DNA of 46,187 nt, from IMG/VR virus record IMGVR_UViG_3300030334_000025. The stretch is one strand, 5' to 3'. The DNA comes from a virus. Within the stretch, counting starts at the first letter, position 1. Each line of letters opens with the position of its first letter. A program made the position numbers and the translations under genes. Of the stretch, positions 2,043 to 46,187 are shown in pieces. Below the pieces are notes generated by a model that saw only the letters and a program-made list of their open reading frames with translations, had not been told where the DNA came from and did not search any database.

Positions 2043-4539
2043 AAATGTCGGTGGTATCTACTACAGCGTGGACGCCGATACGTCGGGACTACTACGGGCT
2101 GAGCGTGATGTTGACCGTTCAACCGACCGCATGGAGCGCAGCTTTGACGACTCCACCAAAGCCACGCAGCGCCAAGAGCGCGCATACCGCAATTTAAATC
2201 CCGTTACCCGCGCTGTACGGCAAGAGACTGAGCGCTTAAGTCGTCAAAATAACCAGCTTGGGCAAACGGCGGGCATTGCGCGAAACGCTATTCAGGGGTT
2301 AATTGGCGCGCTGTCTGTGCGAGAAGTTATCCGCTACGCAGACGCATGGCAGAACGCTGAAAACCAGCTAAGGCAAGTGACTGATAGCACCGAGCAGTTA
2401 ACAGCGGTGCAAAAAGCGCTTGTCAATGTGGCCCGCGATACGCGCTCTAATTTTGAGTCAACAGCGAACTTGTACGCCCGACTGGCTCGCTCAACTACCG
2501 ACCTTGGTCTATCGCAAGAAGACCTCATTGGCCTGACGACGACGATTAACCAATCGTTTGCAACATCCGGGGCGACCGCAGAGGAAGCCAGCGCCGCTAT
2601 TACACAGCTTAGCCAAGGCTTGGCATCCGGCGCGCTGCGTGGCGACGAATTCAACAGCGTGGCCGAGCAAGCGCCCGATATTATGCGCGCCATCGCTGCA
2701 TCGCTAGATTTAACCATTGGCGAACTACGCGAATTTGCAGCCACAGGCGGTATCACTGCTGAGATAGTAGTCAACGCACTGCAGGGTGCAAGCGATGAGA
2801 TTGGTGGGAGGTTTGCTAACAGCGTGGCAACGTTCGGCCAGCAGCTAGAAGTGGCCCGAACCAATCTAATCGAGTGGGTTGGCTCAAGCGAGGAAGTGAG
2901 GGAAGCCGTACGAACGCTGGGTAGTAGCATTGTCACGCTGTCTGAAAATATGGATGCCATTGTTGCTATCGGTAAGGCGGTAGCTGCACTGTATGGCGGG
3001 CGATTGGCTGCGCAGCTACTTATCGGCGCAGGCGCAATGCTCAAGACCGCCACGGCGGCTGCATCTGCCGCCAGAGGTGTAGGCCTGATAACCCTTGCCG
3101 TTAAGGCGCTAACCAGCGCCACAGGGCTAGGCCTGCTGATTGGTGCGGGCGGATTGCTGTTTGCTTTCCGTGATGAGTTGGGGCTAACCACCGAAAAAGC
3201 AGGATTAACCGAAGATCAAATAGCCGACCTTCGCACCGAGCTGCGCGGCATGTCGGATGATGATTTGTCAGGCAGCCTAGATGATCTAAACGCAGAGCTT
3301 GATGAGGCTACGCTGAAAGCATCCGCAGCGCGTGAAGAGCTGGCGAAGTTGCGCAGCGAAAACCGTGGCAGCGGTGTGCTAGGTTTTGAGGGCGGTAGCG
3401 TTGGCGCTGAAATAGCGGGCATGCAGGCGCTGTCTGACGCCGAGAATAAGCTACTCGAAATCGAACAGCGCCGTAACACCGCCAACCGCGAAACAATACG
3501 CCGGTGGACTGAGCGCAATCAAGCGCAGGATGAGTCAACCGAATCGACCGACGAAAATACCGAATCGACGGAAGAAAACAGCGCGGCAACAAGGCGCGCA
3601 GCCGAAGCAGCCGACCAGCGGCAACGTGCCTTGCAGGCGCTAACCGACCAGCTCTACCCGTTAAATGCCGCGCAACGCGAATACAACGAACAATCGGCCA
3701 TGATTGATGAGGCGGTAGAGGCCGGGTTAATCAACGACAAAGCCGACGCGCAAAACCGACTAGCCGAAGCCTATCGCAACACCGTTCAATCGCTGGGTGG
3801 CTTTGATGACGCAATGGCGGCTTATCCGAGTATCTTTGAGCCGCGTGGTGAACAGCAGGATCAAGGCGAGCAGCAAGACCCGTTCGAGAAATGGTTGTCG
3901 AGCGCTGAGTCTGCGTTTAGCGACTTCGATGCGCTAAACGCCAATCTTGCGGAGAATTTCACCAGCAGCTTCGGCAACATGTTTGCTGACGTTTTGACGC
4001 AACAGACCTCATTCAAAGACGGTTTTCAGTCATTGATGCAAGGCTTAACACGCTCAGTGGTTGCGGGAATCGGCGAAATGATAGCGCAATGGTTGGCGTA
4101 TAAAGCGGTGACTGCATCACTTGGATTTTTCGGCGGCGGCGGTTTTGGTGGACTACTTGGCGGATTTGCTGGCCTATTCGACAAAGGCGGGCGCATCCCC
4201 GGAGGCCAATGGGGCATCGCGGGCGAAAACGGCCCCGAGATTATCAACGGCCCGGCCAACATTACCAGCACTGCTGATACGGCGCGCATCATTGGCCGCA
4301 GCGCTAACGACTACAATCCCAGTCGCTCGCAGCGCGCCATGAGCGGGCAGGCCGCAAGCAATGCGCCACAAACGTCGGTTTATGTTAATGTGCATAATGC
4401 GCCGCAGGGCACCGAAGTTGTCGAGCGTCAGACCGATGGCCGCCAGTTCATCGACGTGTTTATAGCCGATGTAACGGGTAACGGACGGAGTGCAAAAGCG
4501 CTACAATCAACGTTCGGATTACAGCGGCAGGGGCGATAA
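2035..4539 (+). CDS. Tape measure protein
   Basis: 834 aa, A/L/E/Q-rich with coiled-coil and hydrophobic central segments and a C-terminal glycine tract (FGGGGFGGLLGGFAG). It is the longest gene after the chaperone. Confidence 0.85.
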   Translation: MAENVGGIYYSVDADTSGLLRAERDVDRSTDRMERSFDDSTKATQRQERAYRNLNPVTRAVRQETERLSRQNNQLGQTAGIARNAIQGLIGALSVREVIRYADAWQNAENQLRQVTDSTEQLTAVQKALVNVARDTRSNFESTANLYARLARSTTDLGLSQEDLIGLTTTINQSFATSGATAEEASAAITQLSQGLASGALRGDEFNSVAEQAPDIMRAIAASLDLTIGELREFAATGGITAEIVVNALQGASDEIGGRFANSVATFGQQLEVARTNLIEWVGSSEEVREAVRTLGSSIVTLSENMDAIVAIGKAVAALYGGRLAAQLLIGAGAMLKTATAAASAARGVGLITLAVKALTSATGLGLLIGAGGLLFAFRDELGLTTEKAGLTEDQIADLRTELRGMSDDDLSGSLDDLNAELDEATLKASAAREELAKLRSENRGSGVLGFEGGSVGAEIAGMQALSDAENKLLEIEQRRNTANRETIRRWTERNQAQDESTESTDENTESTEENSAATRRAAEAADQRQRALQALTDQLYPLNAAQREYNEQSAMIDEAVEAGLINDKADAQNRLAEAYRNTVQSLGGFDDAMAAYPSIFEPRGEQQDQGEQQDPFEKWLSSAESAFSDFDALNANLAENFTSSFGNMFADVLTQQTSFKDGFQSLMQGLTRSVVAGIGEMIAQWLAYKAVTASLGFFGGGGFGGLLGGFAGLFDKGGRIPGGQWGIAGENGPEIINGPANITSTADTARIIGRSANDYNPSRSQRAMSGQAASNAPQTSVYVNVHNAPQGTEVVERQTDGRQFIDVFIADVTGNGRSAKALQSTFGLQRQGR

Positions 4540-13090: not shown

Positions 13091-13660
13091 ATGTGTAAAA
13101 TAGAAAATTGCTCAAATTCAGTTCATGTTAAAAAGCATAACCTTTGCCGCGCGCATTACCTCCGATGGAAAAAGTATGGCGATCCCCTGCATTTTCCTGA
13201 GCCCAGGAGAGGTAAGGATTCTTCAAGATATAAGCACGGAGCGTGGGGGGAAGAGCTTTTTAAAACATGGAGCCACATGATTGATAGGTGTCATAACCCA
13301 AAGTGCAAAGCATATAAACACTACGGAAAAAGAGGAATTCATGTTTGCGAATCTTGGCGAAATGACTTTTTTCAATTTAAGAAAGATATGGGCGAAAGGC
13401 CAGAAAACACTAGCATTGAAAGAATTGACAATAACAAGGGGTATAATCCACATAATTGCAAATGGGCAACCAGTGTGGAGCAAGGAAGAAATAGGCGATG
13501 CGTTAAGCTGACAAAAGAAAAAGCCGATGAAATGCGATCACTACCAAGAAGAGCAAAAAATGGCAGGGGGTCAGGTTACAGCCGTGAAGATATGGCTGAA
13601 AAATACGGCGTATCTGTAGCAACAGTAAAAAAAGTTCTTTCTGGTGCATATTGGAAGTAA
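13091..13660 (+). CDS. HNH-type homing-endonuclease-like DNA-binding protein
   Basis: N-terminal Cys/His cluster (CSNSVHVKKHNLCRAHYLRWKKYGDP) plus the ERIDNNKGYNPHNCKWAT...EQGRNRR motif typical of phage HNH/AP2-like genes. G+C is visibly low. Confidence 0.6.
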   Translation: MCKIENCSNSVHVKKHNLCRAHYLRWKKYGDPLHFPEPRRGKDSSRYKHGAWGEELFKTWSHMIDRCHNPKCKAYKHYGKRGIHVCESWRNDFFQFKKDMGERPENTSIERIDNNKGYNPHNCKWATSVEQGRNRRCVKLTKEKADEMRSLPRRAKNGRGSGYSREDMAEKYGVSVATVKKVLSGAYWK

Positions 13661-13754: not shown

Positions 13755-14117
13755 CTAGCACTTGGTAAACAAGGGCATGTCGTGCTTAACGCGGTATCGA
13801 TTCCACCGCATTATTCGTTCTGCTTCGGTCATTTCCTTCATTCTTCTTACCGCCTTAATCGCAGCCTTCTGACTAATGCCTGTCTGCTCCTCTACTTTCT
13901 TGTAAGACCTGCATGAAAGATATGAATACCAAATCGTTTCCCAGTCTACGTTAGGGCATTGGAACTTATCGGGTCGACTAAGCCCCATGCGGCGCGCGGC
14001 GCGCAATACTGTGCTGTCTGACTTATCGAGCTTTTCAGCTATCTGAATCAGTGTCCACGAGGGGTCTGGATACGTTTCACGTATAAACGCTAAGTCTGTT
14101 TCGTCTAGACTTCTCAT
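13755..14117 (-). CDS. Double helix-turn-helix DNA-binding protein with sigma region-4-like HTHs; candidate transcription regulator
   Basis: HTH-like segments WTLIQIAEKLDKSDSTVLRAARRMG and YKKVEEQTGISQKAAIKAVRRMKE. ATG 14117 with AGGGGTGG upstream is preferred over the track's TTG 14144. Confidence 0.55.
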   Translation of the reverse strand: MRSLDETDLAFIRETYPDPSWTLIQIAEKLDKSDSTVLRAARRMGLSRPDKFQCPNVDWETIWYSYLSCRSYKKVEEQTGISQKAAIKAVRRMKEMTEAERIMRWNRYRVKHDMPLFTKC

Positions 14118-14118
14118 A

Positions 14119-14334
14119 TCACCACCCCTGCTTAAACGTGCCAACGGGGATCACGCACGCATCATGCAGCGACATATCTTTGTACCGCATGCGTTGTTCA
14201 GCAGTTTTAATAGACACGACGCGCCCGGGGTAGTCCTTGATTTGCCGCTTGATAGACCGCGAGCCTGCGGCTATACACTGCTGGCGTTGCTGTTCGAATA
14301 TCTGTTGTTCGTATTTGCTCATTGCTAATAGCAT
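14119..14334 (-). CDS. Hypothetical protein, 71 aa
   Basis: AAGGAG lies 6 nt before ATG 14334. The track's longer N-terminus (to 14436) would run through a terminator hairpin. Confidence 0.6.
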   Translation of the reverse strand: MLLAMSKYEQQIFEQQRQQCIAAGSRSIKRQIKDYPGRVVSIKTAEQRMRYKDMSLHDACVIPVGTFKQGW

Positions 14335-16972: not shown

Positions 16973-17134
16973 TCAATGAACAGTATCGGTCTTTTCATCA
17001 TCCTGCATCGGTACGGTATGGCCCAGCTCGTCAAGAAATGCAAGCACTTCTCCTGCATCGCCCTTTAGCTCGGTTGTGTCAGTAACCGCGCGGTCGTCAA
17101 TGCGCTGCGTTTTTGTGATTTTTACGGTAATCAT
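16973..17134 (-). CDS. Acidic hypothetical protein, 53 aa, absent from the ORF track
   Basis: ATGA overlap with the upstream gene (MITVKITKTQRIDD...). It ends 9 nt before the dut start. Confidence 0.5.
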   Translation of the reverse strand: MITVKITKTQRIDDRAVTDTTELKGDAGEVLAFLDELGHTVPMQDDEKTDTVH

Positions 17135-17469
17135 TTTCGCTTCCTCCGATTAACCCTATCAATCGTAGACTTGGCGGCCTCTTTTTGCCGAGCGCTGGCA
17201 CCAGTAGGGAACCGTATATCCCACTTTCGGCACCAGTGGCCTAGCGTGTCCTTTTTGATACCCCATTCACGCGCTAAGTCAGCGCAGGTATAGCCCGTTT
17301 GTGGTGCTGCTTTGGCTGCCGCTGCCAGTATTTCGCGCAACGGCTGGCCTTCCTGTTCTTCAATTGCCCGCATCCAGCGCGGGCAGTGTTTGGGTAGCGT
17401 GTGCGCCTGTTCGTGGTCGTAGCCAGCGGCTAGGCGTTTGTAGTATGTGCTTTGGTGCATGTTAGCCAC
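17131..17469 (-). CDS. Helix-turn-helix DNA-binding protein
   Basis: YTCADLAREWGIKKDTLGHWCRKW is HTH-like. The C-terminus is basic. It overlaps the 3' end of the SNF2 gene. Confidence 0.55.
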   Translation of the reverse strand: MANMHQSTYYKRLAAGYDHEQAHTLPKHCPRWMRAIEEQEGQPLREILAAAAKAAPQTGYTCADLAREWGIKKDTLGHWCRKWDIRFPTGASARQKEAAKSTIDRVNRRKRK

Positions 17470-22115: not shown

Positions 22116-22295
22116 ATGAAGCTAATCGACCAGTTAGTTACCCGTATGCAGGGAAAAAACCTATCTGAAATTGCCCGCCGTGCCCATGTGGCGCGTGACC
22201 ATGTGACGGATATTGCCGCCGGGCGCGTGCATAACATGAAGGTGGTGACGTATGAAAAGCTGAGTGCTGCGCTGGATGAAATGGAGGCGCGGTAA
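22116..22295 (+). CDS. Cro/XRE-like helix-turn-helix regulator, 59 aa, absent from the ORF track
   Basis: GGAG lies 8 nt before the ATG. The HTH is NLSEIARRAHVARDHVTDIAAGR. It is the first gene of the rightward early arm. Confidence 0.7.
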   Translation: MKLIDQLVTRMQGKNLSEIARRAHVARDHVTDIAAGRVHNMKVVTYEKLSAALDEMEAR

Positions 22296-22297
22296 GA

Positions 22298-23794
22298 ATG
22301 AAAAACTTCACCCTTTTTGAGGATCAAAACGAGTTTGTTGATAACCTTCGTCATGCTTTGCGCGAGGGGTTCAGGTCAATACTTGGTGTTGCGTCACCTG
22401 CCTTTGGCAAGACTGTTGTGGCGGGATACATAACCTCTGAGGCCAAGAAAAAAACAGGCGGTAGCGTTTGGTTTTTGGTGCATCGAAAAAACCTGCTGCG
22501 CCAAACAAGCCAGAGCTTTTGGAAAGCTGGCATTGAGCACGGTTTAATTACCAGCGGCAAGCGCAGAAGCGAGCTACCTGTTCAGGTCGGCACCATTGGC
22601 ACCGTGCATTCGCGCTACGCTAGCATGAAGGCACCAACGATATTGTTTATTGACGAGGCGCACCTGGGTAAGGGCCGGATGTTTGAGACGGTTATCACAT
22701 GGGCAATTGAGCAAGGCTCAATAGTCATAGGTTTAACTGGCACCCCTCAGCGCCTAGATGGTAAGCCACTCGATATTTTCCAAAAAATGATTGAGGCAAA
22801 ATCAACGCGATGGCTGATAGATCAAGGCCGTTTGTCAAGATATGAAATTTACAGCACTCCCAACCTGCCGGACATTTCAACCGTCAGGAAGTCAGGCGGC
22901 GATTTAAACCGTGAAGACTTGGCAGCGGTAATGGATACCAAGACCATCGTTGGTGACGCCATCGGTCACTGGCGAAAATATGCCAACGGCATGATAACTG
23001 TCTGCTACTGCGTGAATGTTGCGCACAGCAAGCATACAGCGGCAGCTTTCAATGCGGCGGGCATAGCTGCCGTACACGTTGACGCCGACACCACCACAGC
23101 CGAGCTAAAAGATGCATGCGAAGGGCTTGCAGACGGTCGCTACAAAACCCTGTGTAACTGCGAATTGGTAATTGAAGGTTTCGACCTCAGTGCGCAAGTG
23201 GGCAGGGACATTACTCTAGAGTGTTGCATACTGCTCAGGCCTACTGAATCATTAGCGCGCTATCTGCAAATGGTGTTCAGGGCACTACGAAAAAAGAACC
23301 GCCCCGCCGTTATCCTTGACCATGCTGGATGTGTATGGAAGCACGGACTACCCGACGACGACCGCGAATGGAGCCTAGAAGGCCGCAAAAAAGGCAAGCG
23401 CAAAAAAGACGAAGACGAACAGCCAGATTTACAAATTCAACAGTGCATGAATTGTTACCACGTATTCAAAGCGGGGCCGGATTGTTGCCCATCGTGTGGC
23501 GAGCCACTACCACGCAAAGCACGCGCAGAAATTGAAGTGGTCGACGGCGAACTAGAAAAAATCGACGTGGCGCAAATTCGCCGGGAGCGCAAACGGGAAC
23601 AGGGGCAGGCGCGCACGTTGCGGGAGCTGATAGAGTTGGGATTGCGGCGCGGCATGAATAAGCCCTCGCAGTGGGCAGCTATCACGCTGTCAGCCAGGGC
23701 AGGACGCAAGCCCACGGCGAAGGATTTTGCCGAGGCTAAGCGTGTGATGCTGGAGATTCAACAGGGTGGTAGTAGTGAAGAGGAGGCGTTTTGA
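22298..23794 (+). CDS. DEAD/DEAH-box SF2 helicase with a C-terminal zinc ribbon
   Basis: Motif I SPAFGKT, motif II IDEAH, motif III TGTPQR. The zinc ribbon is CMNCYHVFKAGPDCCPSCGE. Confidence 0.85.
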   Translation: MKNFTLFEDQNEFVDNLRHALREGFRSILGVASPAFGKTVVAGYITSEAKKKTGGSVWFLVHRKNLLRQTSQSFWKAGIEHGLITSGKRRSELPVQVGTIGTVHSRYASMKAPTILFIDEAHLGKGRMFETVITWAIEQGSIVIGLTGTPQRLDGKPLDIFQKMIEAKSTRWLIDQGRLSRYEIYSTPNLPDISTVRKSGGDLNREDLAAVMDTKTIVGDAIGHWRKYANGMITVCYCVNVAHSKHTAAAFNAAGIAAVHVDADTTTAELKDACEGLADGRYKTLCNCELVIEGFDLSAQVGRDITLECCILLRPTESLARYLQMVFRALRKKNRPAVILDHAGCVWKHGLPDDDREWSLEGRKKGKRKKDEDEQPDLQIQQCMNCYHVFKAGPDCCPSCGEPLPRKARAEIEVVDGELEKIDVAQIRRERKREQGQARTLRELIELGLRRGMNKPSQWAAITLSARAGRKPTAKDFAEAKRVMLEIQQGGSSEEEAF

Positions 23795-24063
23795 TGGACG
23801 GTAAAATCCAGCAGGAAATAACACCATCCGACCCCGTGCCCGGAAAATACATGCTACTCCGTCACGGTGGCACCAAAAAACCAGTGGCCTATTGCACCGT
23901 GCCCGTGCCGTATGCGTTTAAAACGATGGTCGAGGGTTTTTCAGAGCCTGAGCATTGCCAAGTCAAGGTTGCAGATTGCGACGGCACACGAGAAGCACTG
24001 GCGGCGCTGTTTCGTGATGATGCCGGGTGGCGTGCGCCGAATATCAAACAGGAGGAAAAATGA
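23791..24063 (+). CDS. Hypothetical protein, 90 aa
   Basis: ATGA-coupled at both ends. No motif was recognised. Confidence 0.6.
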   Translation: MMDGKIQQEITPSDPVPGKYMLLRHGGTKKPVAYCTVPVPYAFKTMVEGFSEPEHCQVKVADCDGTREALAALFRDDAGWRAPNIKQEEK

Positions 24064-24428
24064 CACCAGAAGCCAGAATACAACGTGAAGTCATGCTAGC
24101 GCTTTCGCAAGCCGGGTGCCTAGTTTGGCGGCAGAACACTGGGCAGGCATGGCAGGGTAAGCAGCTTCACAAGGCCCGCGACCAGATAACGCTAGGCCAA
24201 TGCCGTCCGGTACATTTTGGATTGTGCAAGGGCAGCTCAGACGTGCTTGGCATCGCCCCCGGCGGCGCGTTTCTAGCAGTAGAAGTCAAAACAAAAACAG
24301 GCCGCATAACACAAGAACAACAAAACTTCATCGTTGCCGTGAACCGTGCAGGCGGGATAGGATTCGTGGCGCGCAGTGCCGATGATGCGCTAACACAACT
24401 AGGAGAGCGGCTGCATGACAATCAATGA
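24060..24428 (+). CDS. VRR-NUC domain nuclease
   Basis: AGGAGG RBS before ATG 24060. IQREVMLAL...GSSDVLGI...FLAVEVKTKTGRITQEQQNF fits the PD-(D/E)XK VRR-NUC pattern. Confidence 0.8.
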   Translation: MTPEARIQREVMLALSQAGCLVWRQNTGQAWQGKQLHKARDQITLGQCRPVHFGLCKGSSDVLGIAPGGAFLAVEVKTKTGRITQEQQNFIVAVNRAGGIGFVARSADDALTQLGERLHDNQ

Positions 24429-27132
24429 ATATGCGCGTGAGTACGTGTCGCGGTATGGTTTCCAGTTAGTGCCGATAGAGCCGGGCCGCAAATTTCCTAC
24501 GGCGAACGACTGGGGCAATCAGGTGCTGAGCGACCCGGATGCTGCCGATGCGTTTTATCGTGAGCATCCGAACTGGAATATGGGCCTAGCGTTAGGGCCG
24601 TCACGGATGTGCAGCCTGGACATTGATTGTTCGGAGTCGTTTGGCACGGTGCTAGACGAGTTCGGCATTCCACGCAACGCGCTGGATCACTACCCAACGA
24701 TTCAGGGTAGCGCTAAGGGCCGTCGCGTCATGTTTCGCGTGCCTGATAGCATGGCGCTGCCGTATGCCAAGCTGAATTGGCCGAAACGCGGCGCGGATAC
24801 GCTGTTTACGGTATTCGAGCTACGGGCTGCATGTGACGGCAAACAACGGCAGGACGTCCTACCCCCCTCTATCCATCCCGAAACACAACAGCCTTACCAG
24901 TGGTTAGTCAAGCCTCCAGCGGCAGGTCAAGACTTCCCGACACCGCCGGACTGGCTGCTGGCTATCTGGGAAGCGTGGGATAAATTCAAGCCACAATTCA
25001 AAGACGCTTGCCCATGGGCAGTCCGAGAACAAACGCCACCACCGAAAACGCCGCGCGAACCACGCGACAACCACGGCACCAGCGTTATTGACGAGTGCCT
25101 GAGTCGTGAGGATTTGCGCGCCACGTTGCAGCGTTTCGGCTACAAGCCCGTTGGTCGCCGCCGGTTTCTGAGTCCGCATAGCAACACTGGTCTACCTGGT
25201 GTTGTGATGTTTGACGGTGATCAGTCGTGCTGGATACATCATGCGAGCGACGAGCTGTGCAGCGAAGAAACAGGCCGCCCGGTTAACGCTTTTGATCTGA
25301 TTTGCCAGTTTGAACACGGCGGCGATGCAAGCAAGGCTGTCAAGGCGCTGGCGGACGAGTACGGCATTAAGCGCGAGCGCGTAAAATCGCCCCAGGCGGC
25401 TGCACTGGAAGCACCGCCGCCCGATATGCCACCGGATGACTTGCCGCCCGCTTGCAGCCCGGATGATGCCGACACGCATGCGCCAGATGATTTACCCGCT
25501 GCCGAGCCAGCGGCAGCCACCGAACGAACCAGCATGCCGTTTCGTGCGCTGGGATTCGACGGCGCGATGTATTACTACCTGCCGCGTGGGACTGAGCAGG
25601 TGTGCGAGATTCGCCGGGGCAGCCATACGTCGCCCGCTGAAATGCTAGCGCTCGCACCCGTCGAATGGTGGGATATGGCGTACCCAAAGGATAAATCCGG
25701 CACCGACTGGCAGGCGGCGGCATCGTCGTGTATGCGTGCGTGCGAGGCGCGTGGCGTGTACAGCCTGCGTAACGTGCGTGGTCGCGGTGCGTGGTATGAC
25801 GGTGGTAACAGCGTGCTGCACCTTGGGGATCGGCTGATTGTCAACGGTGAGGCTAAGCGCATCGCGGATCACGACACGCGATTCATTTACACACGTCAGG
25901 GGCCGATGGAGTCCACGATTGACGCACCGCCAGCCGATAATAACGCGGCTAACGAAGTGTTTAAGCTATTCCAGCAACTCAACTGGTCAACGCCGTTTCA
26001 CGGCTGGGCGATGGCCGGATGGACGGTGCTAGCGCCGATATGCGGGGCGCTCGGGTGGCGTCCGCACGTATGGCTGACGGCGCAGCGTGGCGCGGGAAAA
26101 TCGTGGGTGCAGGAAAACATCATTCAGCCCCTGCTTGGGCAGTCTGCGCTTATGGTGCAGGGCGGCACCACTGAGGCCGGGATACGTCAGCACCTCAAGC
26201 AGGATGCGCGCCCGGTGATTTTCGATGAGGCAGAATCCGAAGATCACAGCGCGCAGAAACGCATGAAATCGGTTATCGAGCTAGCACGACAATCATCGAG
26301 CGATGGCAGCGCGGAAATCGTGAAGGGCACCAGCGGTGGCGGTGGCATGGCGTTTCGTATGCGCTCGATGTTCCTGCTGGGGAGTGTGAACGTGTCGCTG
26401 AGTCAGGCCGCTGACGAGTCGCGGTTTACGGTCGTGTCGCTAAAACAGCCTGACAAAACTGCCGCCGAAATCGCCCGGTTTAATGAGTTCGTGCTGCATG
26501 TGGGTAATACGCTAACGCCTGAGCGCTGCGCTGCGATTCGCGCGCGGTCGTACCATCTGATTCCCGTTATCCGTAAAAACGCCAAAACGCTCGCGCAGGC
26601 CGTTGCAGAGACGCTAGGCAGTCAACGTATAGGGGATCAGGTCGGAACGCTGCTGGCGGGGGCTGTGAGCCTGTCTATGGATAGAGAGATCAGTATCGAG
26701 GAGGCGCGTGTCTGGACATCGAAGATAAACCTCGATGAAGCCAAAGAATCCGAGGAGGTGTCTGACGAAGGCATGTGCCTGAACGCGATACTGCAAACAC
26801 AACTCACATTCGACGCCGCCGGGCACCGCTACCAGCGCACGGTATCGGAGATCATCATGGCAGCGGGCGGTAGGAAGGCAATTAGCGGTGACGTCTACGC
26901 CGATGACTGCAACGCGGTGCTGTCACGGCATGGCCTGTTTGTAGACGGCGGGCTGCTGGTCATATCGAACACGCACAACGAGCTGAAACGGATGCTTCGT
27001 GATACGCCGTGGGCGGCTGGCTGGCGGCGGGTACTGTCGCGGCTACCGGGTGCCGATGTATGCCCAGCGCCGCAACGGTTCGCCGGATCACAGACGCGGG
27101 CTATACGTGTGCCGCTGGATTCGTTTTTGTGA
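24415..27132 (+). CDS. Primase-helicase: N-terminal prim-pol-like domain plus a C-terminal P-loop (P4 alpha/D5-like) helicase
   Basis: The N-terminus GFQLVPIEPGRKFP...WNMGLALG...SLDIDC is prim-pol-like. Walker A is QRGAGKSW and Walker B is VIFDEAE. A Pro/Asp-rich linker carries PDD(L)P repeats. Confidence 0.8.
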   Translation: MTINEYAREYVSRYGFQLVPIEPGRKFPTANDWGNQVLSDPDAADAFYREHPNWNMGLALGPSRMCSLDIDCSESFGTVLDEFGIPRNALDHYPTIQGSAKGRRVMFRVPDSMALPYAKLNWPKRGADTLFTVFELRAACDGKQRQDVLPPSIHPETQQPYQWLVKPPAAGQDFPTPPDWLLAIWEAWDKFKPQFKDACPWAVREQTPPPKTPREPRDNHGTSVIDECLSREDLRATLQRFGYKPVGRRRFLSPHSNTGLPGVVMFDGDQSCWIHHASDELCSEETGRPVNAFDLICQFEHGGDASKAVKALADEYGIKRERVKSPQAAALEAPPPDMPPDDLPPACSPDDADTHAPDDLPAAEPAAATERTSMPFRALGFDGAMYYYLPRGTEQVCEIRRGSHTSPAEMLALAPVEWWDMAYPKDKSGTDWQAAASSCMRACEARGVYSLRNVRGRGAWYDGGNSVLHLGDRLIVNGEAKRIADHDTRFIYTRQGPMESTIDAPPADNNAANEVFKLFQQLNWSTPFHGWAMAGWTVLAPICGALGWRPHVWLTAQRGAGKSWVQENIIQPLLGQSALMVQGGTTEAGIRQHLKQDARPVIFDEAESEDHSAQKRMKSVIELARQSSSDGSAEIVKGTSGGGGMAFRMRSMFLLGSVNVSLSQAADESRFTVVSLKQPDKTAAEIARFNEFVLHVGNTLTPERCAAIRARSYHLIPVIRKNAKTLAQAVAETLGSQRIGDQVGTLLAGAVSLSMDREISIEEARVWTSKINLDEAKESEEVSDEGMCLNAILQTQLTFDAAGHRYQRTVSEIIMAAGGRKAISGDVYADDCNAVLSRHGLFVDGGLLVISNTHNELKRMLRDTPWAAGWRRVLSRLPGADVCPAPQRFAGSQTRAIRVPLDSFL

Positions 27133-27153: not shown

Positions 27154-27176
27154 AGCGCCCAAATGGGCGCTTTTTT
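27154..27176 (+). terminator. Intrinsic terminator ending the replication arm
   Basis: Stem AGCGCCC/GGGCGCT, loop AAAT, then T6. Confidence 0.85.
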
Positions 27177-27185
27177 ATGCCTAGC

Positions 27186-27469
27186 CGTTACGTTTCTGTA
27201 CCGCTGTAACGGTGCGTACCGGTCAAAAATCCAGTTTTTGTGATAAATATCAATAACTTATACAACCGTTACGTTTGTTACGGTACGCGGCAATAGATAG
27301 ACCTATAGAGATAGAGACTCATAGGTCAGCATGACAATATCTACCCCTCTCTATTAAATTAAATCTTTTTTAGTTATTTTTGTTATTATTGTCACATAGC
27401 TTTGATTTTACTGGATTTTTTAGCGGTACAAGTTTAATTAGGAGCGTAACGTCTGTAACGGGCGTAACG
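27186..27469. repeat. Module A: AT-rich core bounded by oppositely oriented CGTAACG heptamer arrays; paralog of 39181-39481
   Basis: Heptamers lie at 27186, 27206, 27267, 27277 (left) and 27445, 27455, 27463 (right), with 9-bp spacing. It shares the exact 17-mer CCGTTACGTTTGTTACG and the 19-mer GGTACAAGTTTAATTAGGA with module B. Confidence 0.85.
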
Positions 27470-27510: not shown

Positions 27511-27579
27511 AAAACCTACCAACACCAACCACCACATAAAAATTACTCATTAGCCACCACGCCACGGCGGGTTCATACT
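27511..27579 (+). promoter_or_regulatory. Box-promoter element copy E1 (AAAACCTACCA...AAAAATTACTCATTAGCC-N18-CATACT)
   Basis: Box at 27549-27555, 18-nt GC-rich spacer, CATACT at 27574-27579. It lies 30 nt before ATG 27609, which has a GGAGGAGG RBS. Confidence 0.55.
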
Positions 27580-27608: not shown

Positions 27609-27971
27609 ATGAGCACAGGAATCGGACGGCATAAGTTTGTAGGTGGTGACGAATACGCTCGCAGTGCGTACAGCACGCCGAAGGCAATATGCCCTTACTG
27701 TGGCTATGACGGCTGCGAAGCAGATTATGTAGATGTTGGTGTTGGTATGGTTCAGTGTGGCCCGTATTACTGCACAGAATGCCACGCTAGCGAAGCCAGC
27801 TATTTGGATACAAGAGAGCTTTCAAACCAAGAAAAAGAAACAGGCTGGTATGAGCCGGAGTCCCCGGTAAGCGAAAACGCCAATACGGTAGGCGGGATGC
27901 TGGTAGATCATAAAACAGCTAAGGCTATGTACGTTAATGGCCTACTTGACAGTAAGGAGTTAAACCTATGA
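27609..27971 (+). CDS. Zinc-ribbon hypothetical protein, 120 aa
   Basis: CPYCGYDGC...CGPYYCTEC cysteine pairs. Strong RBS. Confidence 0.7.
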   Translation: MSTGIGRHKFVGGDEYARSAYSTPKAICPYCGYDGCEADYVDVGVGMVQCGPYYCTECHASEASYLDTRELSNQEKETGWYEPESPVSENANTVGGMLVDHKTAKAMYVNGLLDSKELNL

Positions 27972-30595: not shown

Positions 30596-30621
30596 AAGCC
30601 ACTGCACAGGTGGCTTTTTTT
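30596..30621 (+). terminator. Intrinsic terminator between terS and the GIY-YIG gene
   Basis: Stem AAGCCAC/GTGGCTT, a 7-nt loop and T7 running directly into ATG 30622. Confidence 0.7.
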
Positions 30622-31335
30622 ATGAAAAAAACATACGAAGTCTATGTAATAACGAACAGCAAGAACGGCAAGAAATATGTCGGAGTGACAACTCGCGGCT
30701 ACCAAAACAGGTTTGCAAATCACTTATGGCATTCTCGCAAAAATAGCGGCAATTGCTCGGCCCTTTATTCTGCCATCCGCAAGCATGGTGCTAACTGCTT
30801 TTCGGTTGAGCTAGTTGAGCAATGTTCAAGCTTCGAGGAAATGAACTCGAGAGAGCGCTATTGGATAAAGTCATTTAATACTATGTCGCCATCTGGATAC
30901 AATCTGACAGACGGTGGAGACGCTGGCGTATTCGTTGAATCGACAAGGATGAAGATGTCTCAAAGACTGAAAGGGTTGCCCATGTCTGAAAAAAACAAAG
31001 AGGGACTGAGGAACGCATGGTCAAACCCTGAGGTTCGTGCTAGTCGAATTGAAAAAATAAAAGAAGCAATGGCAAGGCCGGAGGTAAGAGAGGCTACTGG
31101 TGCAAGGCAGCGAGGAGTTAAAAAAACGCCGGAGCACGTCGCGTCTCTTAGAAAGGCAAGGGCTAGGAAGGTAACCTGCGTAGACACAGGTGAGCAGTTT
31201 GAAGCAATAGCAGACGCTGTACAGTGGGTTAGGTCGCAAGGCAAATACCCGAAAGCTAACCATTCAAAAATAATCCGGGCAACAAAAAGAGAAGATTACA
31301 CAGCATACGGATACAGGTGGAAGCTGTCATGTTGA
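30622..31335 (+). CDS. GIY-YIG homing endonuclease with NUMOD3-like repeats
   Basis: YEVYVITNSKNGKKYVGVT (GIY...YIG variant), RFANH, ERYWI, YNLTDGG. Repeated SEKNKEGLRNAW and TPEHVASLRKA motifs. G+C is low. It lies between terS and terL. Confidence 0.85.
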   Translation: MKKTYEVYVITNSKNGKKYVGVTTRGYQNRFANHLWHSRKNSGNCSALYSAIRKHGANCFSVELVEQCSSFEEMNSRERYWIKSFNTMSPSGYNLTDGGDAGVFVESTRMKMSQRLKGLPMSEKNKEGLRNAWSNPEVRASRIEKIKEAMARPEVREATGARQRGVKKTPEHVASLRKARARKVTCVDTGEQFEAIADAVQWVRSQGKYPKANHSKIIRATKREDYTAYGYRWKLSC

Positions 31336-39095: not shown

Positions 39096-39111
39096 CCGCG
39101 CTGCAACACCA

Positions 39112-39136
39112 ACCCGCCACCTCGGCGGGTTTTTTT
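39112..39136 (+). terminator. Intrinsic terminator closing cassette C3
   Basis: Stem ACCCGCC/GGCGGGT, loop ACCTC, then T7. Confidence 0.85.
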
Positions 39137-39148: not shown

Positions 39149-39180
39149 ATGCACAGCTTGCGCTTACGTCAACGGCCAAT

Positions 39181-39481
39181 CGTTACGTTTTAAAAGTGCG
39201 TAACGCCACAAAATAGCCAGCGTAACGCGCAACTTGTTGTTTTAATTAAAAAATTACAGCCGTTACGTTTGTTACGATGTTTTGCGAACGATAGTCACAT
39301 ATACATAAACACTGATAGGCACTTAGATAGACATACCTCTCTATATATATATCTATTTTCTGTAATTATTGTTATATATGTCACAAGCCTTTGAATCCAT
39401 TGGATTTTTCACCGGTACAAGTTTAATTAGGACTGTAACGCTTGTAACGTCTGTAACGGCACACTGTTTTTCGTCGTAACG
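39181..39481. repeat. Module B: AT-rich core bounded by oppositely oriented CGTAACG heptamer arrays; paralog of 27186-27469
   Basis: Heptamers lie at 39181, 39199, 39221, 39261, 39271 (left) and 39435, 39444, 39453, 39475 (right). It carries the same 17-mer (39260-39276) and 19-mer (39414-39432) as module A. Confidence 0.85.
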
Positions 39482-39533
39482 CCACCTTGATGAGCCGCCA
39501 ACCCGTGGGCACGCACGACATGGTTGAGCCACT

Positions 39534-39563
39534 TTGCACGCACCGATAGCCTTGTGCTATACT
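39534..39563 (+). promoter_or_regulatory. Promoter TTGCAC-18-(TGTGC)TATACT for the head operon
   Basis: It has both a -35-like hexamer and a TRTGn extended -10, 28 nt before ATG 39591. Confidence 0.55.
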
Positions 39564-39590: not shown

Positions 39591-40736
39591 ATGGCCGACC
39601 AAATCCGCGTCAACATCAAGCACCGCGTCAACAACGCCGCCATCAAGCGCGAAAAGCGCAATGGTCGTGAGGTGATTGTGGTGCCTAGCGCTGTGGCGAA
39701 GTTCGACACGGTGTTAAACAACATCTTTTACCCACGCGCTGAGCTAGAGGCGAGCTACCAGCAGTTGGAAGGTTTGCCCGCCCCGCTTGGGCATCCGGTG
39801 GTGAATAACCAGTTTGTTAGCGCGCGCACGCCTGAGGCCATCAACGGCTTTTGGGCGGGCGCGTGGAACACCAACCCACGCATCGAAGGCGACCGCGTTT
39901 TTGCCGATAAGGTTATCGACGTGGAGTTTGCCCAGAATAGCGAGAACGGGCGCAAGCTGCTGGCGGCGATTGACGAAGGCAAGCCGATTAGTACCAGTAC
40001 CGGATTGCTGATGCAGCGCGAACCAGCACCCGAAGGCGCTGACTATGAGTGGGTAGGCAACAGCTTTGCATTCGATCACGATGCGATTTTAATTTCCGAG
40101 ACGCCCGCCATTGGCACCGATGCAGGCGTTGGAATGATGGTCAACTCCTCCGGCGAGCAAGTCGAAGTCGTTAACTCTGAGCTAGAGATGGACGACGACT
40201 ACGTTACCGCGATGGTGTTTGAAATCGTGGATAGCTACGAGCGCAAGGAAAAACAGAAGCGCAACGCTGGATTAGTCGAACGCATCAAAAACGCAGTACG
40301 CGCCGTGCTGAACGGCGATAAAACCGAAGAGGCCGCTGGCCTGCAAACCAACTCTCAAACGTCTACCGAGGAACCGCAAATGACGACTGAAGAGCTACAG
40401 GCCATGCTCGATAAGCAGGCCGAAACACTGCAAGCGAATCAGGCGCAAGCTATCGCGTCTGCCGTGTCTGACGCAGTCAAACCCATACAAGACAAGCTCG
40501 ACGCGATCAACGCCGAGTCCGAAGCCGCTGCAAAAGCTGAGAAAGAAACGCTTGAGGCGACTGTGGTAGAAGCCAAGCTAGCGACCGAAGATGAAGCCAA
40601 GGCGCTCGACGTAAACGCCCTGCGCATCATGGCGCGTAACTGCAAGGCACCGAAGGGCGCGGATCATCCGCTGAATGGTGGGCGGTTGAGCACGAATGCC
40701 GATAAACTTGAATTTGAAGCACCGGAGGCAATCTAA
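39591..40736 (+). CDS. Scaffolding protein, possibly fused to a prohead protease (DUF2213-like N-terminus)
   Basis: The N-terminal ~170 aa globular domain (LPAPLGHP...GKPISTSTG) is followed by an A/E/K-rich coiled coil. It lies directly upstream of the decoration and capsid genes. Confidence 0.55.
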   Translation: MADQIRVNIKHRVNNAAIKREKRNGREVIVVPSAVAKFDTVLNNIFYPRAELEASYQQLEGLPAPLGHPVVNNQFVSARTPEAINGFWAGAWNTNPRIEGDRVFADKVIDVEFAQNSENGRKLLAAIDEGKPISTSTGLLMQREPAPEGADYEWVGNSFAFDHDAILISETPAIGTDAGVGMMVNSSGEQVEVVNSELEMDDDYVTAMVFEIVDSYERKEKQKRNAGLVERIKNAVRAVLNGDKTEEAAGLQTNSQTSTEEPQMTTEELQAMLDKQAETLQANQAQAIASAVSDAVKPIQDKLDAINAESEAAAKAEKETLEATVVEAKLATEDEAKALDVNALRIMARNCKAPKGADHPLNGGRLSTNADKLEFEAPEAI

Positions 40737-41179: not shown

Positions 41180-42189
41180 TGCTACATTTTGATAAGCAGT
41201 TAATCACTAACAGCAAGCTGCACGCGCAAAAGTGGCAGGAGCTTTCGCTCAACCGCCGCTACTTTGCCCAGCGTGAGCAAGAGCTTGTGGGTAACGCCAT
41301 CACCAAGCCGCAACCATGGTTACAGCTCGATAGCGTGACTGCTCGCGTAATGCGCGACAACGCAGGCCAAGTCATCATGGGTGATTTGATGCCGCTGGCG
41401 ACCACGGTCAATATCGGCAAGGTCGTTCACGGCTATCGCTTCAACTCTGATGGCGCGAACACTACCCAGCGCTCTATCAGCGGCCAGAAGCCGCAGCCAA
41501 TGGATAAAGGCAGCTATGACTTCCGTGGCGTGCCGGTTCCTATCTTCACTAACGGCGTAGGTCGAGAGTGGCGCGAGTGGAACGTCCTGCAAAACGATGA
41601 TTTTGACGCATGGGCCGAAGATGTAGAAAAGGCCACGTATGACATGCGCACCGACATGGCTAACTACTTGCTGGACGGTGATTCTACCATTCAGTTTGAT
41701 GGCTACCAGGGTTACGGTATCCGCAACTCGCCGTATACGCAATCTGTCGATATGACGGGCATCGACCTGACCACCGCCACCACCGTGCAATGGGAAAACT
41801 TCTTGGCGCAAACGCTAGGCGGCGCGGCTGACGATAACCTCGTTACCGAGCCGATGAACCTCTATGTTTCGCCCGAAATTGCGCGCAACCTAGACCTGCC
41901 GTACAACCAGGATGAGTACCTCTCTGGTACGCGCTTCCAGCGGCTTGCCACCAACCGCCGAATCAATGAAATCAAGGTTGATTATGCGCTTTCTGGTAAC
42001 GAGTGGACGGCGTTTGTGCCTAACCGCCGCTACATTCGTCCGGTCGTGGGTATGCCCGTTGGTACGCAGATGATGCCGCGCACCTACCCAATGGACAACT
42101 ACCAAATGTTGATCATGGGTGCGATGGGCTTTGAGATCGTAGCAGACGCCAATGGCCGTTCGGCTGTGTTCTATGGTGTTGGTTCCTAA
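41179..42189 (+). CDS. Major capsid protein
   Basis: 336 aa, at the end of the head operon and followed by a strong terminator. Synteny with the scaffold and decoration genes supports the call. Confidence 0.75.
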   Translation: MLHFDKQLITNSKLHAQKWQELSLNRRYFAQREQELVGNAITKPQPWLQLDSVTARVMRDNAGQVIMGDLMPLATTVNIGKVVHGYRFNSDGANTTQRSISGQKPQPMDKGSYDFRGVPVPIFTNGVGREWREWNVLQNDDFDAWAEDVEKATYDMRTDMANYLLDGDSTIQFDGYQGYGIRNSPYTQSVDMTGIDLTTATTVQWENFLAQTLGGAADDNLVTEPMNLYVSPEIARNLDLPYNQDEYLSGTRFQRLATNRRINEIKVDYALSGNEWTAFVPNRRYIRPVVGMPVGTQMMPRTYPMDNYQMLIMGAMGFEIVADANGRSAVFYGVGS

Positions 42190-45865: not shown

Positions 45866-46187
45866 ATGGCGACTCTTAACGCGCAGCAAACTGTAGTGAC
45901 CGGATTAAACCCTACCTATGCAGCCGCAGACGTAGCAGGTGATGAATTTGACGCAGGCAATGGCGTGTTTTTGCATGTCGTCAACGATGACGTCAGCCCA
46001 CACACCGCGACAGTGGTATCTACGTTTAACGCAGAGCCGGGCATCGCGCCGACTAACGTAGACGTAACCATTCCGGCGGGCGAGTCGCGCATGATTGGCC
46101 CGTTTAGCGGCGTGTTTACCGCGAAAGGCACGATGCCCGTCAGTGTCACCTATGACGCTGTTGCCAGCATCACCGTGGCCGTCATCA
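45866..46187 (+). CDS. Conserved structural-module protein, 109 aa in total; continues at 100-107 after the junction
   Basis: GGAGG lies 7 nt before ATG 45866. The ORF is open to the window end and is absent from the track because it has no stop inside the window end. Confidence 0.7.
   Translation, partial: MATLNAQQTVVTGLNPTYAAADVAGDEFDAGNGVFLHVVNDDVSPHTATVVSTFNAEPGIAPTNVDVTIPAGESRMIGPFSGVFTAKGTMPVSVTYDAVASITVAVI
46089..46187. repeat. Terminal duplication identical to 1-99
   Basis: Exact 99-nt match to the window start. Confidence 0.95.

Follow-up and report, generated by a model that had tools for sequence, protein, structure and literature searches.

In a 46,187-nucleotide stretch of viral DNA (IMG/VR record IMGVR_UViG_3300030334_000025; hereafter, the window), we analyzed two related non-coding modules, module A at 27186–27469 and module B at 39181–39481. 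The best explanation of the sequence comparisons is that module A is a replication origin and that module B is a second, optional copy kept cognate with it. We consider it probable that the pair represents an origin of the class of SaPI ori, P4, and pRN1, accompanied by a second copy that is optional and that evolves in concert with the first. Two sets of observations lead to this reading. First, opposed short repeats flank the most easily melted DNA of the genome, together with IHF sites, behind a helicase gene. Second, the specificity of the repeats changes with the replication cassette over three unrelated helicase types. A preliminary description of this DNA had proposed an iteron and AT-rich origin of the adjacent primase-helicase; after comparative tests, this is the reading that the sequences support best, whereas the analogy drawn there to the ori/crr arrangement of P4 is a loose one.

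Architecture of the two modules

Both termini of the window carry an exact 99-bp direct repeat, indicating a complete genome of ~46.1 kb in circular assembly. The gene set, assigned from Pfam and PHROG families over the window, is that of a tailed phage. An early operon on the − strand (13.7–22.3 kb) encodes a dUTPase, an SNF2-like helicase, an N6 methyltransferase, an SSB, an annealing-protein-like ORF, and a RecE-like exonuclease. The replication operon on the + strand (22.3–27.1 kb) encodes a ResIII/DEAD helicase, a VRR-NUC-type nuclease, and a 905-amino acid Prim-Pol/AAA+ helicase fusion, the proposed initiator (24415–27132, +; Pfam PF09250 and PHROG primase families). Two further + strand operons carry the late genes. 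One (27.6–39.1 kb) encodes the small terminase, large terminase, portal, and Mu-F-like head protein, along with small proteins and a GIY-YIG homing endonuclease; the other runs from 39.6 kb through the circular junction to 13.7 kb and encodes scaffold-like, decoration, capsid, tail, and lysis proteins. No DNA polymerase gene was found among the window ORFs scanned, and an Rfam search of the window returned no RNA families. GC skew was discarded as an origin signal, as it tracks gene orientation only and holds no origin information.

Modules A and B, 12 kb apart as first described, align in the same orientation with 73% identity over ~290 bp, and their parts follow the same order. A terminator, outer-left repeats, an A/T-rich spacer, an inner-left reverse pair, and GATAGA/CTCTAT repeats make up the first half. 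The second half comprises an AT core, degenerate GTAAT/GTTAT/GTCAC units, a 20-mer containing CGGTAC, and three forward GTAACG units. Beyond the right array, ~75–80 bp lead to a sigma-70-type promoter and then to the first gene of the next operon. Placed between a terminator and the promoter that follows, both modules are insulated from upstream transcription. Three exact blocks are common to the modules: the 17-mer CCGTTACGTTTGTTACG, which had been noted before; the 20-mer CGGTACAAGTTTAATTAGGA, which had been taken for a 19-mer; and one 16-mer.

Module A begins 54 bp past the stop codon of the primase-helicase gene (27132), a position that module B does not share. In between, an intrinsic terminator found by terminator scan (27154–27177, +), with a GC stem followed by a T-run, closes the replication operon. 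The outer-left cluster (27186–27221) consists of CGTTACG at 27186 in reverse orientation and of GTACCG at 27198, GTAACG at 27206, and GTACCG at 27216 in forward orientation, the forward repeats being spaced 8–10 bp apart. The A/T-rich spacer between outer and inner left iterons holds an IHF consensus site, TATCAATAACTTA (27248–27260, +). The inner-left pair (27266–27286, −) reads CCGTTACG-TTT-GTTACG with an overlapping CGGTAC; its 17-mer is exact in module B, and all of its units face away from the right array. The core (27295–27400), delineated by duplex stability and A+T content, contains GATAGA and CTCTAT repeats followed by an AT-rich putative unwinding element, with the lowest stability at 27350–27390 and degenerate iteron-like GTTAT/GTCAC units at 27372–27396. 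The right arm (27424–27469, +) comprises CGGTAC inside the 20-mer and then GTAACG at 27446, 27455, and 27464. Promoter P_A (TTAGCC-N18-CATACT; 27550–27579, +), read from the sequence, lies outside the exchangeable module and precedes the operon start at 27609.

Module B is preceded by its own intrinsic terminator (39111–39131, +; terminator scan). Its left arm (39181–39276) carries CGTTACG at 39181 in reverse orientation, GTAACG at 39200 and 39222 in forward orientation, and the inner pair CCGTTACG-TTT-GTTACG at 39260–39276, again reversed. The AT-rich core, CTCTATATATATATCTATTTTCTGTAATTATTGTTATATAT (39326–39385), includes the least stable 40-bp stretch of the genome. The right arm (39413–39481, +) holds the 20-mer, GTAACG at 39435, 39444, and 39453, and one more unit at 39476. 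Promoter P_B (TTGCAC-N18-TATACT with an upstream TG; 39534–39563, +), also read from the sequence and outside the module, precedes the scaffold/capsid/tail operon, which starts at 39591. Sigma-54 promoter motifs downstream of the arrays, checked by eye, did not fit the required spacing.

The motif positions first reported for module A (CGTTACG at 27186, GTAACG at 27206, CGTTACG-TTT-GTTACG at 27267–27282, and CGTAACG-TCT-GTAACG-GG-CGTAACG at 27445–27469) proved exact. The right array, described as spaced by 9 and then 8 bp, is spaced by exactly 9 + 9 bp in both modules when read as GTAACG hexamers. Judged from close relatives, the true repeat is GTA(A/C)CG, and the set in module A then also takes in GTACCG at 27198 and 27216 and CGGTAC at 27281 and 27424. 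Genome-wide, GTAACG occurs 37 times, compared with 19.4 ± 4.4 in shuffled sequences. The GTAMCG form occurs 10 times in module A and 9 times in module B, and its background frequency is 0.2 per 300 bp; across 300 shuffles, the largest count per 300 bp was 7 (mean 3.1). A k-mer cluster search found no further repeat clusters elsewhere in the genome.

The description of opposed arrays around an AT-rich core also held. The two cores are 67.9% and 69.0% A+T, compared with 46.6% for the genome, and they are the two weakest 40-bp duplexes in the whole circular genome (−37.9 and −39.1 kcal/mol; genome-wide mean −58.6 kcal/mol, sd 4.3). The AT-rich center lies between the inner-left reverse pair and the right forward triple, which are separated by 162 bp in module A and 158 bp in module B. 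The IHF match noted at 27248–27260 is present and perfect, being one of two matches to the consensus WATCAANNNNTTR in 46 kb. Across 24 related modules, we found 11 such matches where 0.3 were expected (~35-fold enrichment), and the related loci, 257 kb in all, contain 16 matches, of which these 11 form the majority.

Two copies whose ends form inverted repeats could also represent a small, non-autonomous mobile element (MITE) whose terminal inverted repeats are imperfect, as the preliminary description had suggested, and an 11-bp direct repeat with one mismatch does flank module A. However, chance alone should yield about one single-mismatch pair of 11-mers in 550 bp, no duplication flanks module B, and identity between the two copies is only 73%. 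In bacterial and archaeal genomes totaling 596 Gb (185,579 genomes), we found the 17-mer at 38 sites, fewer than the ~70 expected by chance, and none of the 38 lies in a module. Moreover, the modules occupy a syntenic position in all relatives, and their repeat type tracks the replication genes. Since the bacterial genomes contain no copies, we consider a mobile element extremely improbable.

Exchange of the modules with replication cassettes

We found no close relative among deposited phages, and INPHARED DNA searches with the module and with the region returned nothing. Relatives were drawn from IMG/VR and assembled read archives, which contain many. A module of the same layout follows the primase-helicase gene in all relatives at 50–97% identity, including the Serratia phage MQ-4. 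It lies directly 3′ of the gene in most of them and after one inserted gene in L134/L135/L144. Every locus in the range of 50–79% identity shows this layout. The repeat is GTAAC(G) or GTACC in the window, L137, L139–L141, L199, and L264–L266; GTCACG in L131, L132, L136, L138, L148, and L149; and GTAGTCG or GTAGACA in L133. Across these types, the inner-pair frame ...ACG-TTT-G... and the CTCTATATATAT-type core are unchanged, whereas the recognition bases vary, and the iteron type goes with the primase-helicase lineage. Conservation of the repeats in related genomes is thus true of the layout, whereas the GTAACG sequence itself varies by lineage.

MQ-4 (ON853583.1) is a cultured phage that combines P2-like myovirus late genes with a helicase related to that of the window. 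Its single, GTAAC-type module (41,325–41,720) lies ~1.6 kb downstream of the helicase gene, with genes intervening (one to four in MQ-4 and L134/L135/L144). Within this module are 16 repeat cores, along with the MQ-4 genome's least stable 40-mer, and it precedes a late-gene promoter. In the Bordetella phage PY223, the two intergenic gaps inspected near a related helicase gene contained no such module. Two wider searches were abandoned: a generic k-mer cluster finder applied to TerL-anchored loci was too noisy for modules in distant phages, and the pattern GTAACG-N3-GTAACG-N3-GTAACG retrieved mostly unrelated tandem repeats in giant-virus contigs from IMG/VR.

Exchange of whole replication cassettes was evident from phages that share late genes with the window. 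The late genes of L222/L240 are 85–99% identical to those of the window (TerL 99%, TerS 98%), and their early region has no detectable protein similarity to that of the window. Homology between the window and L222 starts exactly at 27536 and a second time at 39529. In L222/L240, both modules are replaced at the same two sites by modules with the same architecture, carrying GGATAGCAG / CTACTAAGCTGC repeats and the AT core ATATATATAAAAA(A)ATATATATAAA, and the gene before the first of these encodes a different Prim-Pol/PriCT-2/DUF3987 protein. A third cassette, in L268, has another P-loop helicase type, with AAATCACC/GGTGAT repeats before the same P_A. In L222 and L268, which have two unrelated helicase types, the module is likewise directly 3′ of the helicase gene. 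P_A is kept in L222, L264–L266, and L268 despite their different upstream modules.

The converse combination, window-type replication genes with diverged late genes, occurs in L309/L310 (scaffold 72% identical) and L264/L312 (scaffold 45%). Both retain module B with GTAAC/GTACC repeats, and in L264/L312 a lineage-specific inner pair, CGTTACGAACGGTACG, is present in both copies. Matched A/B pairs were found in four genomes. Module A occurs without module B in L265/L311 (one contig), in MQ-4, and, within a 21-kb sequence, in L230. In L311 and in L214, a separate relative, the terminator is followed directly by an identical P_B, with no module B. By these sequence comparisons, module B is dispensable in relatives and thus optional.

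These exchanges bear on whether the modules might be packaging recognition sites (pac or cosB-like sites bound by the small terminase) or centromere-like sites. Lambda cosB and P1 parS pair an IHF site with arrays of repeats in both orientations, and the modules resemble both in these features. However, the window and L222 have near-identical terminases (small subunit 98%, large subunit 99%), yet both modules are wholly replaced. That near-identity of the small terminase across a module swap argues against packaging sites; against a centromere-like site, neither ParA nor ParB was found in the window. We regard this explanation as very unlikely.

The serious rival is a late-promoter control region, in which the modules would be the regulatory regions of two late operons and an early-region DNA-binding protein, such as a small HTH protein, would switch P_A and P_B together with IHF. 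The preliminary description had listed operator arrays for a phage regulator among its alternatives. Each module is directly upstream of a late-operon promoter, with packaging and portal genes after module A and scaffold, capsid, and tail genes after module B, and the genome has no repeat cluster outside them. The modules co-vary with the early region, where such a regulator would be encoded and where some ORFs have weak HTH matches, and IHF sites are typical of enhancer-like promoter regions too. However, the last repeat ends ~75–80 bp upstream of the −35 element, so the arrays do not overlap the promoters. In relatives, the promoters 3′ of the modules are close to consensus (TTTACA-N17-TATAAT), and an activator should be unnecessary; moreover, P_B persists in two relatives, L214 and L311, that have no module B. 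An operator would have no obvious use for the conserved (TA)n core, the weakest duplex of the genome, and the module accompanies the replication gene in phages whose late genes are unrelated (L230 and MQ-4). Taken together, we consider control of the late promoters alone unlikely.

Because both modules and that of MQ-4 precede late-gene promoters, a role in transcription is possible alongside replication. The modules could be dual-purpose origins, at which the loaded helicase or the local unwinding would also switch on the neighboring late promoter and thereby couple it to replication. The terminator-module-promoter layout heads both late operons and recurs in MQ-4, and module B is kept and co-evolves with module A in four genomes, although P_B exists without it elsewhere. 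If true, such a switch would explain why a second cognate origin copy heads the capsid/tail operon and why this copy stays matched at each exchange of the replication module. Against this, the promoters look constitutive, and the insulated intergenic gaps may be the sole places that tolerate a 300-bp non-coding insert. A dual role therefore appears distinctly improbable to us.

The primase-helicase and a proposed mechanism of initiation

The origin reading assigns a central role to the product of 24415–27132, a protein with over a thousand homologues. It consists of a Prim-Pol domain (residues 7–180), a helicase (~375–770), and a C-terminal helix/β-hairpin domain (~774–905). On the full 905 residues, the N-terminal Prim-Pol (PF09250) was the only domain matched by Pfam; the protein had been called P4-alpha-like, and its primase domain is thus not of the DnaG type. 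We utilized AlphaFold to model residues 330–905 with 67 homologues (pLDDT 87) and searched the model with Foldseek. The best PDB match was SCCmec Cch (5dgk), an MCM-like self-loading helicase (E = 2e-7), and the other top folds were the C-terminal region of the phage NrS-1 primase-polymerase, poxvirus D5/E5, and ASFV PrimPol. These are all enzymes that join initiation and unwinding. The helicase part is thus predicted to fold like the self-loading initiator helicases of the AAA+ ring class.

The last 136 residues form helix and β-hairpin units (pLDDT 92) and evolve faster than the helicase core, with ~45% versus ~60% identity in the same homologues. Searched alone, this C-terminal domain gave no significant PDB match (best E > 0.1), and RepE and wHTH regulators were present solely among the non-significant matches; its identity as a winged helix is therefore putative. 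We found no residues or segments of the primase-helicase that track the repeat type independently of phylogeny. Columns 584, 602, 613, 619, 716, and 790 discriminated between repeat types and were considered as specificity residues; they are inseparable from phylogeny, as they coincide with one clade and also occur in the GTAGTCG phage L133. The Prim-Pol part of the protein in L308/L309 (to ~residue 528) is a diverged recombinant patch, and the helicase, C-terminal domain, and module are identical. As judged from the sequences, this patch is compatible with a location of the repeat specificity in the C-terminal half. That module A is 100% identical between these two genomes carries no weight as a sign of constraint, because the flanking 2 kb are identical too and the genomes are near-identical outside the patch, with differences confined to 24250–26000.

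On the origin reading, initiation may proceed as follows. The 905-amino acid Prim-Pol/helicase would bind the GTA(A/C)CG repeats, most likely via its C-terminal domain, and would assemble on both sides of the AT-rich core, where the opposed direction of the inner arrays would suit two opposed helicase rings. Host IHF may bend the left arm and thereby bring the outer repeat cluster near the core. The (TA)n/AT core would melt, the helicase would load itself, and the Prim-Pol domain would lay the first primers, after which a host polymerase would take over, as the ORFs scanned include no phage DNA polymerase gene. Later concatemers for packaging may be made by the phage exonuclease, annealing protein, and SSB. 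Since the whole early region swaps with the modules, any early protein is a possible binder of the repeats. Alternative binders could be the conserved 90-amino acid ORF of the early region (23791–24063) or the early ORFs with weak HTH matches at 13755–14144 (−), 17131–17469 (−), and 22116–22295 (+).

Comparison with known origins

The SaPI origins consist of 6–12 penta- or hexanucleotide iterons directly 3′ of rep, with an AT-rich center and opposed orientation on each side; the iterons are bound by the C-terminal winged helix of Rep, and their specificity differs between elements (PMC9371898). In PriRep5, primase and helicase are fused (PMC9371898). The likeness to the window is almost point for point in the iterons, their position, the AT center, the orientation, the element-specific repeats, and the primase-helicase fusion, and SCCmec Cch has the closest fold to our predicted helicase structure. 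However, SaPIs are satellite islands, whereas the window is a virulent-looking tailed phage of Gram-negative bacteria, and we detected no sequence similarity between the window and SaPI or SCCmec. In addition, unlike the SaPI ori, the module includes an additional outer cluster of repeats as well as an IHF site and is present twice, and its presumed initiator carries a domain that is only putatively a winged helix (no significant fold match), in contrast to that of SaPI Rep.

The satellite phage P4 offers a looser parallel. Its ori and crr are two cis elements that lie kilobases apart and carry the same short repeats. P4 crr is a repeat block, whereas module B copies module A in full and includes an AT core of its own. 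In the P4-type arrangement, the second element is required together with ori, whereas module B is missing from L311, L214, MQ-4, and the 21 kb of L230. The bipartite ori/crr arrangement that had been suggested for the two modules was thus given up, as module B is complete in itself and dispensable in relatives. P4 alpha unites a primase, an AAA+ helicase, and a C-terminal DNA-binding part in one polypeptide (PMC2777425). The window thus shares with P4 a one-polypeptide primase-helicase and two distant cis elements with common repeats, but the primase of P4 alpha is of the DnaG type and that of the window is an archaeo-eukaryotic Prim-Pol (PF09250).

The passages of the pRN1 reports on which we draw place an essential non-coding origin just 3′ of the gene for the Prim-Pol/SF3 helicase ORF904 (PMC4234260, PMC2777425). 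An origin downstream of a Prim-Pol/helicase gene is, on these passages, common to pRN1 and the window, and a profile of the window protein weakly matched the Prim-Pol domain of ORF904 (E = 0.025). However, pRN1 is an archaeal plasmid, and the same passages describe a genetically defined, single-copy origin 166 bp downstream of the gene, with no iteron/AT-core architecture like that of the window. The virulent tailed Bacillus phage SPP1 has two separate regions for initiator binding, each with the same repeats beside an AT-rich unwinding element, and its G38P binds both origins, oriL and oriR, with comparable affinity (PMC5737612). In contrast to the helicase fusion proposed here, G38P is a separate non-AAA+ initiator that works with a loader and a DnaB-type helicase; SPP1 oriL lies inside the initiator gene, and neither SPP1 origin has a sequence relationship to the modules of the window. 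By analogy, SaPI ori with PriRep, pRN1 ORF904 with its downstream ori, and SPP1 oriL/oriR appear closer to the modules than P4 does.

The element belongs to a textbook class and is thus a useful annotation rather than a surprise. Its class is familiar; here, according to the sequence comparisons, it is duplicated, and in related phages it is swapped together with the replication genes as one matched set. In the literature and data searched, no origin has been described for phages with this primase-helicase, and the modules provide a testable candidate origin and likely initiator for a large, uncultured group of ~45-kb tailed phages. The informative part is the natural exchange of cassettes at two sites, together with the cultured phage MQ-4 (ON853583.1), in which the same module type is available for direct experiments. 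Three unrelated replication cassettes, each with its own repeats at the same site, and one lineage with two sites constitute a natural swap experiment. Because the cassettes are naturally exchanged, these phages are a good system for studying the evolution of initiator-origin specificity and the retention of a second origin.

Iteron modules of the window and its relatives

We found a module of the same design as those in the window, the homologous iteron and AT-core modules A and B, in a cultured phage. Serratia phage MQ-4 (ON853583.1), which has P2-like late genes, carries one GTAAC-repeat/AT-core module at 41325-41720, 1.6 kb downstream of MQ4_52, its gene for a related helicase. In the deposited record, no feature is annotated across the intergenic stretch that holds this module.

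Module B has a further element, the box CAGCTTGCGCTTACGTCAACG (39153-39175), which follows the terminator and precedes the first repeat. This box is kept in all B-type modules (relative loci L211-L213, L216, and L310), is not present in module A, and may contain degenerate repeats (CTTACG). Outside the modules, the only further close GTAACG pair in the genome lies in the tape-measure gene, where the motif occurs twice, 7 bp apart (4471-4483), most likely by chance.

The region downstream of the primase-helicase gene differs among relatives. In L134, L135, and L144, an additional minus-strand gene and an ATGTGCA(Y) repeat array are inserted between this gene and the iteron module, in the first 550 bp or so after the primase stop codon (for example, 6610-7150 in L134). 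The insertion looks like a small regulator carrying its own operators. A third replication cassette was identified in L268 (1120-1450), in which a P-loop helicase of another family is followed by AAATCACC/GGTGAT repeats. The window's promoter P_A, located beyond module A, is also present in L268, downstream of these repeats.

Candidate repeat-binding proteins

Between the helicase and nuclease genes lies a 90-amino acid ORF (23791-24063) that matched no family. It is 73-92% conserved across all relatives with GTAMC-type iterons, and none was detected in relatives bearing other repeats. As an alternative to the primase-helicase, its product is a candidate to bind the repeats. Sub-threshold helix-turn-helix matches were obtained for three small early ORFs, at 13755-14144 (-), 17131-17469 (-), and 22116-22295 (+). 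Of these three, the 129-amino acid ORF contains two HTH-like stretches, and the 59-amino acid ORF resembles Cro in standing first in the replication operon.

Genome ends, homing endonucleases, and recombination

An exact 99-bp terminal direct repeat (1-99 = 46089-46187) was detected, and the window is a complete, circularly assembled genome about 46,088 bp long. The nearest protein cluster bears the NCBI label Herbaspirillum sp. and is also represented in metagenome assemblies, marine ones among them.

A GIY-YIG homing endonuclease gene (30610-31335) separates the small and large terminase genes; at the matching site, the near-identical contig L308 carries an HNH_3 gene and another terminase family. 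A second HNH endonuclease gene (13091-13660) is the last of the late operon. When the window was compared with L308 and L309 over 22.3-28.3 kb, every difference was confined to the Prim-Pol-encoding half of the primase-helicase gene, at 24250-26000, where mismatches reached 46 per 250 bp. This stretch is a recombinant patch within a single gene.
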